Shown here: positions 31,227 through 36,747 of the stretch, piece after piece | How positions within the stretch are numbered: position 1 is the stretch's first letter | Layout of the letters: each line of letters begins with the position of its first letter | Assembly: GCA_027451965.1 (NCBI GenBank) | Contig: DAIDHJ010000001.1 | Span: 317,276-354,798 of the forward strand | From: Candidatus Adlerbacteria bacterium | GTDB lineage: Bacteria; Patescibacteriota; Minisyncoccia; Phycocordibacterales; SBAW01 | DNA: 37,523 bases | Direction: 5' to 3' | Program-made: the position numbers and the translations under genes | The notes under the pieces: generated by a model | Seen by the model: only the letters and a program-made list of their open reading frames with translations | Told to the model about the DNA's origin: nothing | The model's database searches: none

Positions 31227-32738
31227 CTATACAAATCCCGGGAAAAAATCTGTTTTGATATGTCTTTTTGGAATACCGAGATCCTGGAGTATTTCACGGA
31301 AAGCAGTAATCATTGCTTGTGGGCCAGAGATATAAAAAATGCGTTCTCGGTAATCCGGTATGAGTTTGCGAATCAGTTCTGGCGTTACCGTTTCATATGT
31401 ATAGGCAGGAAGGGGATGTTCTTCAGTAAGAACATAGTGTACAGGAGTCCCCAGTTCTGTGCGAGCACGCTCCAGAATTGAACTGTACGCAATGTCTTCC
31501 TTGGTTCTATTGCTATACAGGACGGCAATATCTCGTTTTTCTCTGCGGTCCAACAGGTACTGCAGCATGCTGCGAAACGGGGTGATACCTATTCCGCCCG
31601 CAATGAACACCAATTTTTGTGTTTTTGAAGCAGGAAGGGTGAACGTGCCCCCGGTTTCAAGTGCGCTTATAGATCCTCCTGGCTGAAGGGCAAGCAATGC
31701 TCGTTTAAAGCTACTTCCATTTTTCGTGAATTTAACACCGATACGCACTTCTTGCTCGGTTGGAGACGAAGCGAGTGTAAAGTAACGCCGATTTCCGCGC
31801 ATATCCGTTTTCGTATGAGGAAGTGTCCATTCCATGTATTGTCCCGGAAGATACGCAAAAGCAGTACGTGGTGAAAAAAGAAAATCAGCACTGCTTTTTC
31901 CTGTGCGCTCAATGCGGGTAAGAGTCATATGCACCCTCTTGCGAGGATTAACGATTGCAGAAAAGATGTTTCCTACTACTAATGCAAGTTCTGGAGTGGA
32001 ATATATTGATCCGATATGAATTGCAGGGGCAAACAGTATACCTACCACTATTCCATATGCTATCCGCAACCAAGCTATAGACGGGGTAGTGACCGGTTCG
32101 GTAAGCATGATAAACGCAAGGAATAGGAGGGAAGTATGGACAACTACTTGTCCTAATAGGCTTATGTTTGGTACCGCAGTGGTAAGAAATATAGAGAACA
32201 GTGCTGCAGTAAAGAATACGAGCACCAGATCCCATCGTTGTAATTTCCGCACTAGCAGTATGCCACCAATAAGGATCACCGGAAGCAATGCAAGATTTCC
32301 AGCGGCCCACCAGCTTGCTGCATGTCCAAATAGAAACGCCATCGCTACCAACCCAAGTGCGGCAGGGTTGAAGATCGGCTTTTTTCTCAAGGTGATCAAA
32401 TATTTTGATGCAATAGCTACGGTACTTGCAGCTGCCAGTAACAGTATGCCGCCGAGATTTGTCGGCGCTATAGGAGTAATGAGCAGTGCCAGAATAAGAG
32501 CAGTGATGTAAGTAGATTCCGTATTTGCCGGCGCAGCAAATATATGTACGCACAACTCATTTACAAACAGGCTTACCAGCGTGATCAATACAGCAGAGAA
32601 AAGGATGTTTATCGGCTGGTATGGCAAGATGTGTACCCAACCATATACCACCGCGCTCACTAGGATCGCCAGGAGGTAATAGAGTACCAGGTGATACATA
32701 GTGGTTCGGTTGAGGATGTAATCAATAAACTGCATCAT
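31227..32738 (-). CDS. NqrB/RnfD-like membrane domain fused to an FNR-type FAD/NAD(P)H oxidoreductase
   Basis: Multi-TM N-half with IASKY..K.IFNPAA and MLTEPVTTP; C-half with PGQY, RRYFTLASSP, FIAGGIGITPFRSM, FYISGP. Confidence 0.88.
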   Translation of the reverse strand: MMQFIDYILNRTTMYHLVLYYLLAILVSAVVYGWVHILPYQPINILFSAVLITLVSLFVNELCVHIFAAPANTESTYITALILALLITPIAPTNLGGILLLAAASTVAIASKYLITLRKKPIFNPAALGLVAMAFLFGHAASWWAAGNLALLPVILIGGILLVRKLQRWDLVLVFFTAALFSIFLTTAVPNISLLGQVVVHTSLLFLAFIMLTEPVTTPSIAWLRIAYGIVVGILFAPAIHIGSIYSTPELALVVGNIFSAIVNPRKRVHMTLTRIERTGKSSADFLFSPRTAFAYLPGQYMEWTLPHTKTDMRGNRRYFTLASSPTEQEVRIGVKFTKNGSSFKRALLALQPGGSISALETGGTFTLPASKTQKLVFIAGGIGITPFRSMLQYLLDRREKRDIAVLYSNRTKEDIAYSSILERARTELGTPVHYVLTEEHPLPAYTYETVTPELIRKLIPDYRERIFYISGPQAMITAFREILQDLGIPKRHIKTDFFPGFV

Positions 32739-33481
32739 ATCGTCGTATATGCTTCAAATCCGCTCGTCATCGTAGCCATACCGTCTTGATCAATACTATA
32801 CCCTTCATATCCCGGCAATGTTTCAATGAAACTGATCCCTGCATTCCCCATAGCAAACGCTGGAGTGGAGAATCGATCAGCCTCGCATACATCTGGACCA
32901 ATAACCGTAAGACTCGCCAGTGCAGTGAGCGGTTGTTCAGGGTGATGTGGGTCGTAAATATGATTGCCGCGTTCGTACAGTCCTGACGTTGCTACGCCTT
33001 TTCCTTGCGGATATATGATTTTTACAATGGTGTTCGGAGTAAATGGATTTCGAATGCCTATACTCCAAGGTTTTCCTTGAGCATTAGTCCCCGAAGTCTG
33101 TATGTCGCCTCCGGCTTCGATAGAAAAATTTTCATATCCTTTTTGGTACAGTAATCGCGCTGCATTGCGTATGGACCATCCTTTGACGATTCCAGAAGGA
33201 TCGATATGGCCATCAGGATGATGCATGTCGAAATATCCTTTTGATTCTTCTTTTGTTTTCTCCGCGAGTGCAAAGATTTCATGCATATCCGTACTCCATG
33301 CGGATTCAGGCAGTTCCCCTCGATTAATACGCATAATCTCACTCTCCGTTTTATAGGTGCTGAAGCGGGTATCTACTGATACGAAATACGAGAATACCTC
33401 TTCAATCGCAGTGTGGACATCAGCATCGGAGACAATTTCAACAGTAATAGGCATGCCCATGCAAGGACGTGTCTCTTTCAT
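32735..33481 (-). CDS. apbE: FAD:protein FMN transferase
   Basis: MGM, FSTYK..SEI.RIN, DPSGIVKGW, EAGGDI, W.IGIRNP, VATSGLYERG.HI.DP, AD. Confidence 0.92.
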   Translation of the reverse strand: MKETRPCMGMPITVEIVSDADVHTAIEEVFSYFVSVDTRFSTYKTESEIMRINRGELPESAWSTDMHEIFALAEKTKEESKGYFDMHHPDGHIDPSGIVKGWSIRNAARLLYQKGYENFSIEAGGDIQTSGTNAQGKPWSIGIRNPFTPNTIVKIIYPQGKGVATSGLYERGNHIYDPHHPEQPLTALASLTVIGPDVCEADRFSTPAFAMGNAGISFIETLPGYEGYSIDQDGMATMTSGFEAYTTI

Positions 33482-33489
33482 ACGTATTC

Positions 33490-33963
33490 CTATGCTTTAT
33501 TGAGCGCCGTGGTTAATGATTGTACGAATGCCTCACTTGTTGCAGTAGCGCCAGAAACCAAATCAACTTGGGCGCTTTGTGTTGCTATAGCTTCTTGTTT
33601 AAGTTGTGGAAGTGCAACAGCACTTCGTTCTTGAGAATAAGGATTGTCATTTGGATATTGCAAAAAGACAATATTTACTAAAGCTCCATTTTGAATTACT
33701 GCTCGTACTTGCAAGGGGCCGTAGAAGGCATCGGTAACCGAACCAGTATAAGTGCCATCCCTATATCTTCCGGTATTTGAATTTATGGGCGGTGTTGCGG
33801 GTTGAGGTTGTGGAGGTTGTTGCTGGACTGGGGTAGGAGACTGCGGAGGTGGGGTAGTAGATGTCGCCGCAAGAGAAGTTGCAGTTTGGTTGGAAAATGT
33901 ATTCCATAGTGCATAGGCTCCTAATGCAATGAGAAGAGCGCCGATAAAAAATAATTTCTTCAT
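33490..33963 (-). CDS. Membrane-anchored FMN-binding protein (flavinylation target)
   Basis: TM, Pro/Gln linker, YRDGTYTGS...YG, VDLVSGATATS ([S/T]GA[S/T] motif). Confidence 0.92.
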   Translation of the reverse strand: MKKLFFIGALLIALGAYALWNTFSNQTATSLAATSTTPPPQSPTPVQQQPPQPQPATPPINSNTGRYRDGTYTGSVTDAFYGPLQVRAVIQNGALVNIVFLQYPNDNPYSQERSAVALPQLKQEAIATQSAQVDLVSGATATSEAFVQSLTTALNKA

Positions 33964-33981
33964 AGACAGGTTATTTATAGG

Positions 33982-34434
33982 TTAATTAGAGCCGTACCCA
34001 GGAGAACAGCGGATAAACTGAGCAACAATATGTCCTTGCTGATCCGGTTGGCCAACAACAACTATGGTTTCTCCAACACTGAGGGTAGAAGTTCCTTCAT
34101 TGTCGAAGGAAGTAGAGCTGCTAACAAGTATGCTCTGCTGATTTCCAACACGATTGGTGATTTGAATAATTGGAAAATGAATTGTACTAATTGTTCCTAC
34201 TGTTCCATGATTACTCTCGATGAATTCGTGTGGGAACGGTAGAGGGATACCAAACGGTCCTATCGTCCCTTCGGCAGGGAATCCATACCCGGATCTATAT
34301 TCAAATTCAAAGTGTTCTGCTTCGAATGACATACCGAGATGAAAGATTAATGCGGCAAGTATCAAAGAAGCAAGCACTACCAGTATTGCTTTTTTTCGAG
34401 GAGTGAACCACGTTTTTCTTGTATTTTCAGACAT
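33982..34434 (-). CDS. Hypothetical membrane-anchored protein with a beta-rich C-terminal domain
   Basis: Start MSENTRK 1 nt after the upstream stop; single TM; HGTVGTI...LSVGETIVVVG...IVAQFIR. Confidence 0.75.
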   Translation of the reverse strand: MSENTRKTWFTPRKKAILVVLASLILAALIFHLGMSFEAEHFEFEYRSGYGFPAEGTIGPFGIPLPFPHEFIESNHGTVGTISTIHFPIIQITNRVGNQQSILVSSSTSFDNEGTSTLSVGETIVVVGQPDQQGHIVAQFIRCSPGYGSN

Positions 34435-34435
34435 G

Positions 34436-34834
34436 TTAGATGTTTGCGTGTGCGGTAAAGAGAATGTGCGCATTGGCTGGGATGCGTGACAAAGACCATA
34501 TGCATCCTGCAACACACGCCAGTACGCCGAGAATTCCTAATGCAGGTAATGAATCGAATAACAGGAGACCCAAGTTCTGCCAGGAAGAAAGGATTATTTG
34601 GTGGTTAGAAAGAGCGAGATTAAGATAATCGTAAAATCCTGATACATACAATTCGTGTGCGGCATACGAGAGTATTGGAATAAGAGCTCCAATTGATACA
34701 AACGTACTGCCGATAAATGCTGCGATGCGCATTTTTGCTCGGCGACACTGCAATGCAAAAATACGTGCTTCTATATTCCTATAAAGTATAGAGGGAGGCT
34801 CTACTTCTTGGAGCAGTTGGCCTAGGGTATACAT
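34436..34834 (-). CDS. Membrane protein, putative anti-sigma factor
   Basis: Short soluble N-terminus EVEPP..LY..I..RI, then two TMs; lies downstream of the ECF sigma gene. Confidence 0.6.
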   Translation of the reverse strand: MYTLGQLLQEVEPPSILYRNIEARIFALQCRRAKMRIAAFIGSTFVSIGALIPILSYAAHELYVSGFYDYLNLALSNHQIILSSWQNLGLLLFDSLPALGILGVLACVAGCIWSLSRIPANAHILFTAHANI

Positions 34835-34922
34835 GCTTTGTATACGAATCACCGTTTTGGTTTGGTGCATTTTATACACAAAGGGCACTTTGACATAGAT
34901 TCTATTTCTATTAGACTCCTAC

Positions 34923-35101
34923 GGTAATAAGCCATCCCGCGGCTTATTAGAAAGGGAAAACCATTGTTCCTAAAACGCTGGTCCTTTCAAGTCTCTGCCG
35001 GGCTGCAGGGACACTCCCAGGCGAGGGAAGAGCGTTCCTTTCGGGATAGGTTTTTGAGTGGTCATCCTCCGTAAAGAGGGTTACCACTCCTACGGGCGGC
35101 T
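34923..35101 (+). ncRNA. Candidate structured non-coding RNA, family not recognised
   Basis: Three nested stem domains with several G-U pairs in the + orientation; TTGACA-16 nt-TAGACT upstream (34890-34917). Confidence 0.5.
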
Positions 35102-35680
35102 CTACAATGAGCCGCCCTCATGCTGCTGGGAAAGTAATTTTCGCAGCGTAATCAATGCACGAAAATGTCTGCTTTTTACCGTATTGATAGATGCATGCAA
35201 CAAAGTGCCTATTTCTTCAAAGGTAAGATGGTTGGTGTAGTGCAGTAACAATACTTCTCGCTGCGGTGCGGGAAGTTGTTGTATAGCGGCCTGTAATGTT
35301 TGTGCATCTTCCGCTTGTATCAACGCTTCTTCTGCAAGCAAGGCTGGATCAGGAACCGTTTCGGCAAGCACATTTTTTTCTTCCACATCAAATGAAGAAA
35401 AGGGCACCTGTTTTTTCTTTCTGAGGTAATCGATTGCCGTATTGTGTGCAATACGCATAAGCCAGGTGCTAAATTTACTGGTTTCTGGGCGGTATGAAGC
35501 CAAGTGTCTCCAAGCTTTTACGAATGTTTCTTGAGCTATATCCTGCGCATCTGATTCGTTTCCGGTAAATCGCAATGCAAATGAGTACACATTTCCCAAT
35601 GTACGGTTAGTAATTTCTTTGAATGCCAATTCATCTCCTTGTAGATATTGTGCAACCAGTTCCTCATTGGTGATCTCCAT
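35102..35680 (-). CDS. ECF RNA polymerase sigma factor (sigma-70 family)
   Basis: DAQDIAQETFVKAW, FSTWLMRIAHNTAIDYLRK, LP..QREV, TFEEIG..L..SINTVKSR. Confidence 0.93.
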   Translation of the reverse strand: MEITNEELVAQYLQGDELAFKEITNRTLGNVYSFALRFTGNESDAQDIAQETFVKAWRHLASYRPETSKFSTWLMRIAHNTAIDYLRKKKQVPFSSFDVEEKNVLAETVPDPALLAEEALIQAEDAQTLQAAIQQLPAPQREVLLLHYTNHLTFEEIGTLLHASINTVKSRHFRALITLRKLLSQQHEGGSL

Positions 35681-35735
35681 GTACAAAACATTCTATCGTA
35701 AAACAGAAAATATTCTTTGTTATAGTAAGTAGTGT

Positions 35736-36272
35736 ATGCAAACTGAAACGATTGTACTGGGCGGCGGTTGTTTTTGGTGCACCGAGGCGGTATTTTCGCA
35801 GCTTAATGGAGTACTATCGGTGGTCCCCGGATATGCCGGCGGAACGGAGACGCACCCCACCTATGAGCAAGTATCGGAAGGGAATACGGGTCATGTGGAA
35901 GTGATAGAAATCACCTATGATCCTGAGATCATTTCATGTGAACGCATTCTGGAAGTTTTTTTTGATAGCCACGATCCTACTACGCTTAATCGACAAGGAA
36001 ATGATATTGGCCCGCAGTATCGTTCGGTCATATTTTATACCACTCCACAGCAGCAGGCAGTTGCACTTCACTATCTCCGGACCATCCAGGATGCGTACGC
36101 TGCTCCGGTAACCACTACTATAGAGCCCCTCGTTATGTTTTATCCGGCGGAAGCGTATCACCAGGAATACTATAAAATGCACGCAAACGCGCCATACTGC
36201 CAGTTGGTTATTGCTCCTAAAATCAAGAAGCTTACAAAGCAATTTCCTGAACTCATAAAACCAGAACCATAG
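35736..36272 (+). CDS. msrA: Peptide-methionine (S)-S-oxide reductase
   Basis: GGGCFWCTEA, GYAGG, HDPTTLNRQGND.G.QYRS, FYPAEAYHQEY, PYC. Confidence 0.96.
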   Translation: MQTETIVLGGGCFWCTEAVFSQLNGVLSVVPGYAGGTETHPTYEQVSEGNTGHVEVIEITYDPEIISCERILEVFFDSHDPTTLNRQGNDIGPQYRSVIFYTTPQQQAVALHYLRTIQDAYAAPVTTTIEPLVMFYPAEAYHQEYYKMHANAPYCQLVIAPKIKKLTKQFPELIKPEP

Positions 36273-36291
36273 CGTGTGGTATAGTCTCGAT

Positions 36292-36747
36292 ATGGAAAAA
36301 GTGCTACTTACGCCGTACTACCTTATTGCAGCCGCTCTGATTGGAGTGGGGGATACGCTCTATCTTTCGTATTACAAGTACCTTGGACTGGTTCCTACCT
36401 GCGCTATTTTGCATGGTTGCGATCAAGTGCTCACGAGTGCGTATGCAACTGTCTATGGGGTGCCACTGGCATATATCGGATTCGTATTTTATGTATACAT
36501 GCTGGTCCTGGTCTTGTTGCTCGCCATAGATCCCCGCTCTCCTGCATTACGATGGGGTGTTATGGCCTACACGACCATAGGTCTCTTGTGTTCCGTCCGT
36601 TTTGAAACGCTACAACTTTTTTCAATCGGCGCGCTCTGTATTTACTGCGCAACCTCTGCACTCACCGCACTCGCGCTATTTGCGTTGAGTGTGTGGCACG
36701 TACGTGCCAGTAGCTCAATGTCTCGGCCTGCGTACGCCGCGGAATAG
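36292..36747 (+). CDS. Vitamin K epoxide reductase (VKOR) family disulfide-formation protein
   Basis: C.....CDQVLTSAYA...GVPL loop cysteines, active-site CIYC, 4 TMs. Confidence 0.9.
   Translation: MEKVLLTPYYLIAAALIGVGDTLYLSYYKYLGLVPTCAILHGCDQVLTSAYATVYGVPLAYIGFVFYVYMLVLVLLLAIDPRSPALRWGVMAYTTIGLLCSVRFETLQLFSIGALCIYCATSALTALALFALSVWHVRASSSMSRPAYAAE

Follow-up and report, generated by a model that had tools for sequence, protein, structure and literature searches.

Within a 37,523-nucleotide (nt) stretch of DNA from a Candidatus Adlerbacteria bacterium (the window; contig DAIDHJ010000001.1, positions 317,276 to 354,798), the gene for an extracytoplasmic function (ECF)-type sigma factor and the membrane protein gene which occupies the position of its anti-sigma partner are separated by an element that is a real, lineage-restricted and conserved insertion with the layout of a small transcription unit. 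The reading that we favour, tentatively, is that this element forms an independent unit of about 190 nt on the + strand, opposite to both flanking genes, which would encode a cis-encoded antisense regulatory RNA. While its sequence is new, its kind, whether cis-antisense small RNA or small gene, is well known. The genome from which the window originates (G000) comprises 552 kb in five contigs and is estimated to be 99% complete. The features of the locus are listed below in window coordinates.

34436..34834, - strand: membrane protein gene in the anti-sigma position, likely start at ATG 34834, open reading frame (ORF) open to 34888 (150 codons)
34835..34868, - strand: promoter-like motif ahead of the anti-sigma gene, GCACCAAA-14 nt-CGTATA-6 nt-ATG
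34890..34917, + strand: sigma-70-type promoter-like site TTGACA-16 nt-TAGACT, matching the consensus at 10 of 12 positions
About 34924-34925, + strand: transcript start predicted from this site
34925-34933/34941-34949, + strand: 5' hairpin of 9 bp (9 of 9 pairs) with a 7-nt loop, followed by the conserved block TTAGAAA
34950..35055, + strand: body of weak structure that includes the conserved blocks TTCAAG(G)TCTC and GAAGA.CGTTCC
34991-34998/35005-35012, + strand: small middle hairpin within the body
34964..35074, + strand: putative ORF of 36 codons with a TTG start, ending in Pro-Pro-stop
35056-35069/35076-35089, + strand: 3' hairpin specific to G000, with 14-nt arms that are 86% complementary
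35094-35102/35109-35117, + strand: GC-rich hairpin of 9 bp lying over the sigma stop codon, presumably the 3' end or terminator
34915-34924 and 35086-35095, no strand assigned: 10-bp direct repeat ACTCCTACGG, bracketing most of the element
35102-35104, - strand: sigma stop codon, under the GC-rich 3' hairpin
35102..35686, - strand: ECF-type sigma factor gene (Pfam Sigma70_r2, 2.5e-24; Sigma70_r4_2, 1.7e-15)

The promoter-like site and both the 5' hairpin and the hairpin 35056-35089 had been pointed out in a first-pass annotation of this DNA and are present as described there, the site ranking best among the promoter-like sites of 34600-35400 in a consensus scan.

An Insertion Restricted to Two Lineages

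The first-pass annotation had raised the question of whether the sigma and anti-sigma genes are adjacent in related genomes. An anti-sigma homologue is encoded in 27 of the 79 other genomes of the genus, in each case with the sigma gene directly upstream. In 26 of these relatives, at most 84 nt separate the sigma stop codon from the first in-frame ATG; in the 27th (L037), the frame stays open into the sigma gene, which makes the measure uninformative, yet the two protein matches overlap. In G000, the same distance amounts to 231 nt, and to 267 nt up to the homologous ATG 34834. The 267-bp gap announced by the first-pass annotation holds if the anti-sigma protein starts at this ATG, which aligns with the starts of the relatives and is preceded by the same short motif; it shrinks to 213 bp if the first in-frame GTG, at 34888, is taken instead. 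Since the two genes abut in the 27 relatives, the element is a lineage-specific insertion.

Among nine metagenome loci with a detectable anti-sigma match, a single one, L051, also has a long gap (278 nt), the others having at most 52 nt. The best explanation is that the insertion dates to the common ancestor of the G000 species and the L051 lineage, and the element is so far known from these two related lineages only. BLAST searches with the element against 60 relatives returned only chance-level matches of 15-38 nt, and those with the L051 copy against the 79 other genus genomes gave likewise only chance-level matches. The pattern GAAGAR-N0-1-CGTTCC-N4-34-(A)TCCTCCGTAR, derived from the shared blocks, is found in G000 alone among 401 genomes of the order and in none of the viral contigs searched. 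Its one match in a collection of species representatives lies inside a 469-residue ORF of a Clostridia metagenome-assembled genome and was taken as chance.

The insertion might also be a remnant without present function, left by a small mobile element or by captured DNA, either foreign or from a gene fragment, an origin that we consider very improbable. It would agree with the insertion relative to 27 relatives, with the G+C content of the element (0.54 against 0.47 for the genome) and with the direct repeat which brackets most of it in G000. It would also agree with a similarity of 82% over 38 nt between 35021-35058 and the 3' end of a class II aminoacyl-tRNA synthetase-like ORF in another genome of the genus (G030:C2:103390-103425, locus L004). 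This similarity was rejected as chance, because its E value of 0.0037 was obtained in one of 61 genomes searched and it is not kept in L051; five other genomes of the genus gave shorter matches, of 20 nt, in this region of the query. The first-pass annotation had suggested, among other readings, a small mobile RNA-like insertion. The repeat does exist at 34915 and 35086, yet it is absent from L051 and is probably fortuitous, and its first copy lies mostly ahead of the predicted transcript start. The element is moreover single-copy in its genome and, in a repeat search of the locus, without terminal inverted repeats. A derivation from a miniature inverted-repeat transposable element or an insertion sequence was discarded on these same grounds. 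Finally, nothing real was found in relatives, in the order, among species representatives or in viral contigs, and the element is conserved above the neutral level, as described below.

Conservation Between the Two Loci

L051 was recovered by scanning metagenomes with the sigma protein. Its sigma factor is 75% identical to that of the window, the next best locus reaching 55%, and its anti-sigma protein is 57.5% identical. All comparisons were made on the + strand of the window, which corresponds to the - strand of L051.

At the homologous position, L051 carries the promoter-like site TTGACT-16-TAGAAT, which also matches the consensus at 10 of 12 positions and is the best of that locus. The hexamers are identical between the loci at 10 of 12 positions, while the 16-nt spacer is so at only 8 of 16 (counted by hand), leaving the shared pattern TTGACW-16-TAGAMT. 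By sequence match at homologous sites, the element would possess a promoter of its own on the strand opposite the flanking genes, a feature of cis-encoded antisense RNAs. G000 and L051 alike have a start hairpin beginning 7 nt after the -10 box, with different loops; in two of its eight aligned pairs, both bases have been replaced (A-U to C-G, G-C to A-U). The GC-rich hairpin at the sigma stop codon is likewise present in both, with one compensatory pair and one change from G-C to G-U, and a further hairpin stands just after TTCAAG in the minimum free energy (MFE) folds of both. In L051, TTTTACTTTT comes after the 3' hairpin, and the hairpin scores as an intrinsic terminator on the strand of the element. 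From the predicted start to the end of the 3' hairpin, the distance is 193 nt in G000 and 185 nt in L051. In addition, four blocks are common to both loci: TTAGAAA, TTCAAG(G)TCTC, GAAGA.CGTTCC and ATCCTCCGTA.

Alignment of the two elements yields 117 matches in 163 columns, with a score z of 6.6 against 300 shuffles, and the identity between the two loci at third codon positions is 0.41 for the sigma gene (185 codons) and 0.37 for the anti-sigma gene (130 codons). These values support conservation of the element above the neutral level, with constraint apparently acting on at least the blocks and the hairpins. By contrast with these, L051 lacks counterparts of the long interrupted rod, the interior structure, the alternative end-to-end pairing and the direct repeat. 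The first-pass annotation had set this alternative pairing in competition with the 5' hairpin and had considered a switch; with the pairing not found in L051, the switch found no support.

A Candidate Antisense Transcription Unit

The + strand had been favoured earlier, as antisense to the gene cluster, on account of G-U pairs. The preference is mild: the + strand folds somewhat better (-85.8 against -80.3 kcal/mol for 34925-35117), and the hairpin 35056-35089 contains one U.G pair. The + strand is the most plausible choice, because the promoter hexamers and their spacing, the start hairpin and the 3' hairpin recur in L051. A strain variant within a helix, described below, keeps pairing on the + strand (U.G to U-A) and was also counted in its favour.

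From these features we infer that the element is transcribed, which strand is read and where the RNA ends, and propose the following mechanism. The sigma-70-type promoter at 34890-34917 would start an RNA near 34925, at the foot of the 9-bp hairpin. This RNA of about 190 nt would have, after its 5' hairpin, about 105 nt with little structure, and would end at the GC-rich hairpins of 35094-35117. It would be fully complementary to any transcript reading through from the sigma to the anti-sigma gene. As the sigma gene is transcribed in the direction convergent with the element, transcription of the latter may lead to polymerase collision, while the duplex formed with the read-through transcript may be cleaved by RNase III, an enzyme encoded in G000 (PF14622, 3.5e-40). 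Collision and cleavage would together uncouple sigma from anti-sigma. Expression of the anti-sigma protein would then depend on its own promoter-like motif, which stands back to back with the promoter of the element, and the ratio of sigma to anti-sigma would shift.

Several observations weigh against this proposal. Among the public sequencing runs listed as containing the stretch, none is an RNA run, and transcription of the element from the + strand is predicted from sequence. Many housekeeping promoters of G000 resemble, in our reading, an extended -10 type with no clear -35 box, so that a perfect -35 hexamer is atypical for this genome. The hairpin 35056-35089 has no counterpart in L051, which presents two small hairpins instead, and the L051 element folds only modestly beyond shuffles (z -2.4 and -2.9). 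In G000, no U-tract follows either 3' hairpin on the + strand, nor is there one on the - strand, and the hairpins exist just as well on the sense strand, with a possible role in the sigma mRNA. An in-frame ORF common to both loci would also fit a coding function. As there are only two independent sequences, covariation rests on three pairs. Lastly, in a public DNA run (X6), the element shows 2 differences in 213 nt and the sigma gene, synonymous sites included, 1 in 277 nt; since the sigma gene is equally invariant, the low variation of the element may reflect recent shared ancestry rather than selection.

Two known systems offer a comparison with the predicted antisense RNA. GadY of Escherichia coli is reportedly a cis-encoded antisense small RNA located in the gadX-gadW intergenic region. 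In both cases, a gene for a small RNA would occupy the spacer of two regulatory genes that point the same way, on the strand facing them, so that its product could pair with the region joining the two in a common transcript; RNase III would be the effector. The element bears no sequence or structural relation to GadY, its partners are a sigma and an anti-sigma gene, and its host shows no use of Shine-Dalgarno (SD) sequences; expression, pairing and cleavage are here predictions from sequence. In Bacteroides, cis-antisense small RNAs such as DonS occur at polysaccharide utilisation loci controlled by ECF sigma and anti-sigma factors. The likeness lies in a cis-encoded antisense RNA within a locus governed by such a pair; DonS-type RNAs differ in that they lie opposite the 5' end of the downstream susC-like gene and not between sigma and anti-sigma genes, they belong to a different phylum and they share no homology with the element.

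A conserved small gene of this kind, from promoter to terminator, at a sigma/anti-sigma joint that relatives keep abutted would provide a concrete candidate for testing, and would illustrate how an insertion of 190 nt can break and rewire the co-expression of such a pair. Its practical weight is modest, as it concerns two lineages and is based on sequence. Literature searches retrieved no description of such an element and no work on small RNAs of Patescibacteria; described regulatory RNAs appear to be scarce in this group, the full-text search having returned unrelated papers only.

Folding of the Element and the Sense Strand

Folding energies were compared with those of dinucleotide-shuffled sequences, 200 per stretch. 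The region 34884-35125 folds at -96.6 kcal/mol on the + strand (z -5.39) and at -90.3 kcal/mol on the - strand (z -4.09), and on neither strand did any of the 200 shuffles fold as well, which bears out the structured stretch recognised by the first-pass annotation. The rod which it had drawn through the interior is a different matter: 34950-35055 folds no better than shuffles (z -0.86 on the + strand, -0.49 on the - strand), and the MFE and centroid folds of the element are a string of local hairpins with no closing stem. The 5' hairpin alone scores z -2.05, and the tandem 3' hairpins (35056-35120) z -8.23 on the + strand and -6.1 on the - strand. The folding signal is carried by these three hairpins, the 5' one and the two in tandem at the 3' side.

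An alternative is that the element is no separate gene but a hairpin-rich spacer serving the sense strand. Its role would be to end or protect the sigma mRNA and to keep it apart from the anti-sigma gene, the promoter match on the + strand being fortuitous or inert. We judge this unlikely, although several observations would suit it. The two strongest hairpins, which account for most of the folding signal, stand directly at and after the sigma stop codon; one relative (L041) has, in our reading, a small hairpin right after this codon; and most relatives have a promoter-like motif ahead of the anti-sigma gene, so that uncoupling would be tolerable. However, neither locus has a U-tract on the sense strand, while a canonical one is found on the antisense strand of L051. 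A spacer function would also leave unexplained why the hexamers and their spacing are kept while the sequence between them has diverged, why the two loci agree in placing a hairpin exactly 7 nt downstream of the -10 box and why unstructured blocks are conserved in the middle of the element.

Bidirectional Rho-independent terminators of convergent gene pairs provide a related comparison. As in such terminators, GC-rich hairpins are located where the + strand unit and the sigma gene converge, and the L051 hairpin scores as an intrinsic terminator. The element differs from them by its length of about 190 nt, its own promoter-like site, its start hairpin and its conserved unstructured blocks, and by the lack of U-tracts on both strands in G000.

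Does the Element Encode a Protein?

The + strand transcript could instead be a small mRNA for a protein of 36 residues in G000 and 29 residues in L051, or an RNA with both functions, the main rival reading, which we hold to be less probable than an antisense RNA. The protein would then be a lineage-specific third gene product of the sigma/anti-sigma locus. L051 indeed contains, at the same place and in the same frame, an ORF of 29 codons with a TTG start and the same Pro-Pro-stop ending. In both loci, the TTG follows an A/G-rich unpaired stretch, and the ORF terminates within the conserved block ATCCTCCGTA(A/G), the stop codon itself being different. When codons are aligned by hand, a single frame runs through the blocks (S-F-x-V-S, E-E, F, G-x-P-P), whose spacing shows net length differences of 9 and 18 nt. 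This alignment has 13 identities among 29 residues, eight of these with synonymous codon differences, and 12 of its 21 mismatches fall at third positions. The ORF region (34964-35074) has no excess folding (z +0.96), as expected of a coding body.

However, this codon alignment is hand-built, and an unbiased nucleotide alignment places 1-nt gaps in the blocks and CGTTCC out of frame. In six-frame Smith-Waterman comparisons, the pair of ORFs scores 35 against 33, 31 and 29 for other frame pairs and does not stand out, and ORFs of such lengths are common in shuffled sequences (P 0.26 for G000, 0.34 for L051). Between the loci, the peptide changes sign in net charge, from about +3 to about -3 (own count), and the one strain variant within the ORF, 35042 C>T, is non-synonymous. 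The peptide has no relatives among 1.84 billion representatives, nor in the 79 genus genomes, where the one match (E 0.16) lies inside a 308-residue frame. TTG starts are weak, and SD usage is not apparent in this organism. On the sense strand, a small ORF of 31 codons in G000 and 17 codons in L051 was rejected, as start contexts, lengths and sequences differ.

The antisense and coding functions might also be combined: the antisense body would insulate sigma from anti-sigma, and the short ORF would be translated as a recently born third gene. We regard such a dual-function RNA as improbable. Ribosomes pausing at the Pro-Pro-stop, with the stop codon in the loop of the hairpin 35056-35089 next to the terminator, would in that case set how far the antisense RNA reaches into sigma. 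Translation of the ORF would make it a case of a young micro-protein gene, and a dual function, if true, would occur in an organism whose 16S rRNA lacks the anti-SD sequence.

This last feature concerns translation initiation in the genome as a whole. The 3' end of the 16S rRNA (G000:C1:32863-34325, outside the window) has no CCTCC; after ...GTTCGTGGA, it reads ACAATTCAATG. SD-like motifs precede the first ATG in 32 of 569 long ORFs, compared with 40 of 569 random positions, whereas a -10-like box is found at most 20 nt upstream of the ATG in 81 of 569, compared with 18 of 569. This suggests that initiation is SD-independent and often leaderless. A full-text literature search combining anti-Shine-Dalgarno with Patescibacteria found no paper. 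With a 16S 3' end that lacks CCTCC and no enrichment of SD-like motifs, the purines ahead of the TTG are not evidence of a ribosome-binding site. The idea that the CCTCC block of the element mimics an anti-SD sequence, or acts as an SD site for the sense-strand ORF, was dismissed for the same two reasons.

Known RNA Families

A search of the whole window with Rfam covariance models at gathering thresholds returned only four tRNAs, located elsewhere. With Rfam 15 and E values up to 10, the single match at 34700-35300 was FAM13A-AS1_2 (12.3 bits against a gathering threshold of 38, E 5.4). No riboswitch or cis-regulatory family of Rfam matched the locus, 6S RNA (RF00013) matched neither the locus nor the whole genome up to E 10, and bacterial signal recognition particle (SRP) RNA (RF00169, RF01854) was found neither at the locus nor in G000. 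The view of the first-pass annotation that the element belongs to no known family is in agreement with these searches. RNase P and tmRNA genes were found elsewhere in G000, and the element is therefore not a misplaced copy of either.

The first-pass annotation had compared the element to 6S RNA for its size and rod shape. Its length, its sigma-70-type promoter-like site and its location next to a sigma gene do recall 6S RNA; the resemblance ends there, with no covariance-model match, no significant rod or central bubble and no presence in relatives, and was not retained. More generally, it is hardly credible that the element is a diverged 6S RNA, an SRP RNA or a riboswitch or attenuator controlling antisense read-through into sigma and on to msrA. 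A size of about 190 nt would fit, neither 6S nor SRP RNA was detected elsewhere in the genome, and riboswitches have the same plan of a structured leader ahead of a terminator. These points are outweighed by the Rfam result, with its one chance match up to E 10, by a rod no better than shuffles and lacking a closing stem, and by interior structure and alternative pairing that are not conserved in L051. Furthermore, a housekeeping RNA should exist in relatives, while the element is confined to two lineages.

As for SRP RNA, neither its small nor its large form was found in G000, and the small form was found in none of 31 genomes (G000 and 30 relatives). Searches of G000 with the Ffh M domain (PF02978) and the SRP54-type GTPase domain of Ffh and FtsY (PF00448) were also negative, and the 30 relatives gave only short matches at the level of the P-loop (positions 2-52 of the 196 in the model), a single one of them passing the cut-off by a narrow margin. 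As a positive control, each of the five families was found in 12 to 14 of 14 control genomes. With Ffh and FtsY not found, an SRP RNA is not expected in this genome.

Variation Among Strains

Parts of the element are contained in contigs of four public DNA runs from four studies. One contig of run X6 shows 9 differences within 34678-34888 as against 2 within 34889-35134 (Fisher P 0.028). One of the latter, 35042 C>T, falls in an unpaired stretch and is the non-synonymous change of the ORF mentioned above (own reading); the other, 35080 G>A, is the sole variant inside a helix and converts the U.G of the hairpin 35056-35089 into U-A. The contrast along this contig was not counted as evidence of selection, the sigma gene, synonymous sites included, being equally invariant, and probably marks a recombination boundary.

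Strains differ more in the anti-sigma gene than in the sigma gene, with 7 differences in 157 nt against 1 in 277 nt in X6 and 18 in 436 nt against 5 in 373 nt in a second run, X5. In X6, five of the seven anti-sigma differences are at third codon positions (own count). This divergence could reflect a recombination boundary or fast evolution of the sensor partner.

Flanking Genes

The membrane protein in the anti-sigma position matched no Pfam family. In L051, an in-frame stop codon lies upstream of the ATG homologous to 34834 (read from the sequence). The motif GCACCAAA/CGTATA which precedes this ATG is found in five of seven junctions inspected in relatives (L024, L029, L032, L041 and L050) and in L051. 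The arrangement (T)GCACCAAA-14 to 16 nt-CGTATA sits 6-7 nt before the anti-sigma ATG in both G000 and L051. The motif also stands ahead of a tRNA-Tyr gene of the window (about 1490-1520, - strand), and G000 has one more site at C1:294534 (+). From its sequence and position, it looks like a promoter type with a leaderless start.

Downstream of the sigma/anti-sigma pair, a run of - strand genes (31227-34515) encodes a DUF5666 protein, an FMN-binding protein, ApbE and a 503-residue protein in which an NQR2/RnfD-like domain is fused to an NAD-binding oxidoreductase domain. On the other side, msrA and a VKOR-family gene (35736-36747, + strand) diverge from the sigma gene. Judging from these gene contents, the neighbourhood looks like a redox or oxidative-damage module, which is possibly the regulon of this ECF sigma factor.

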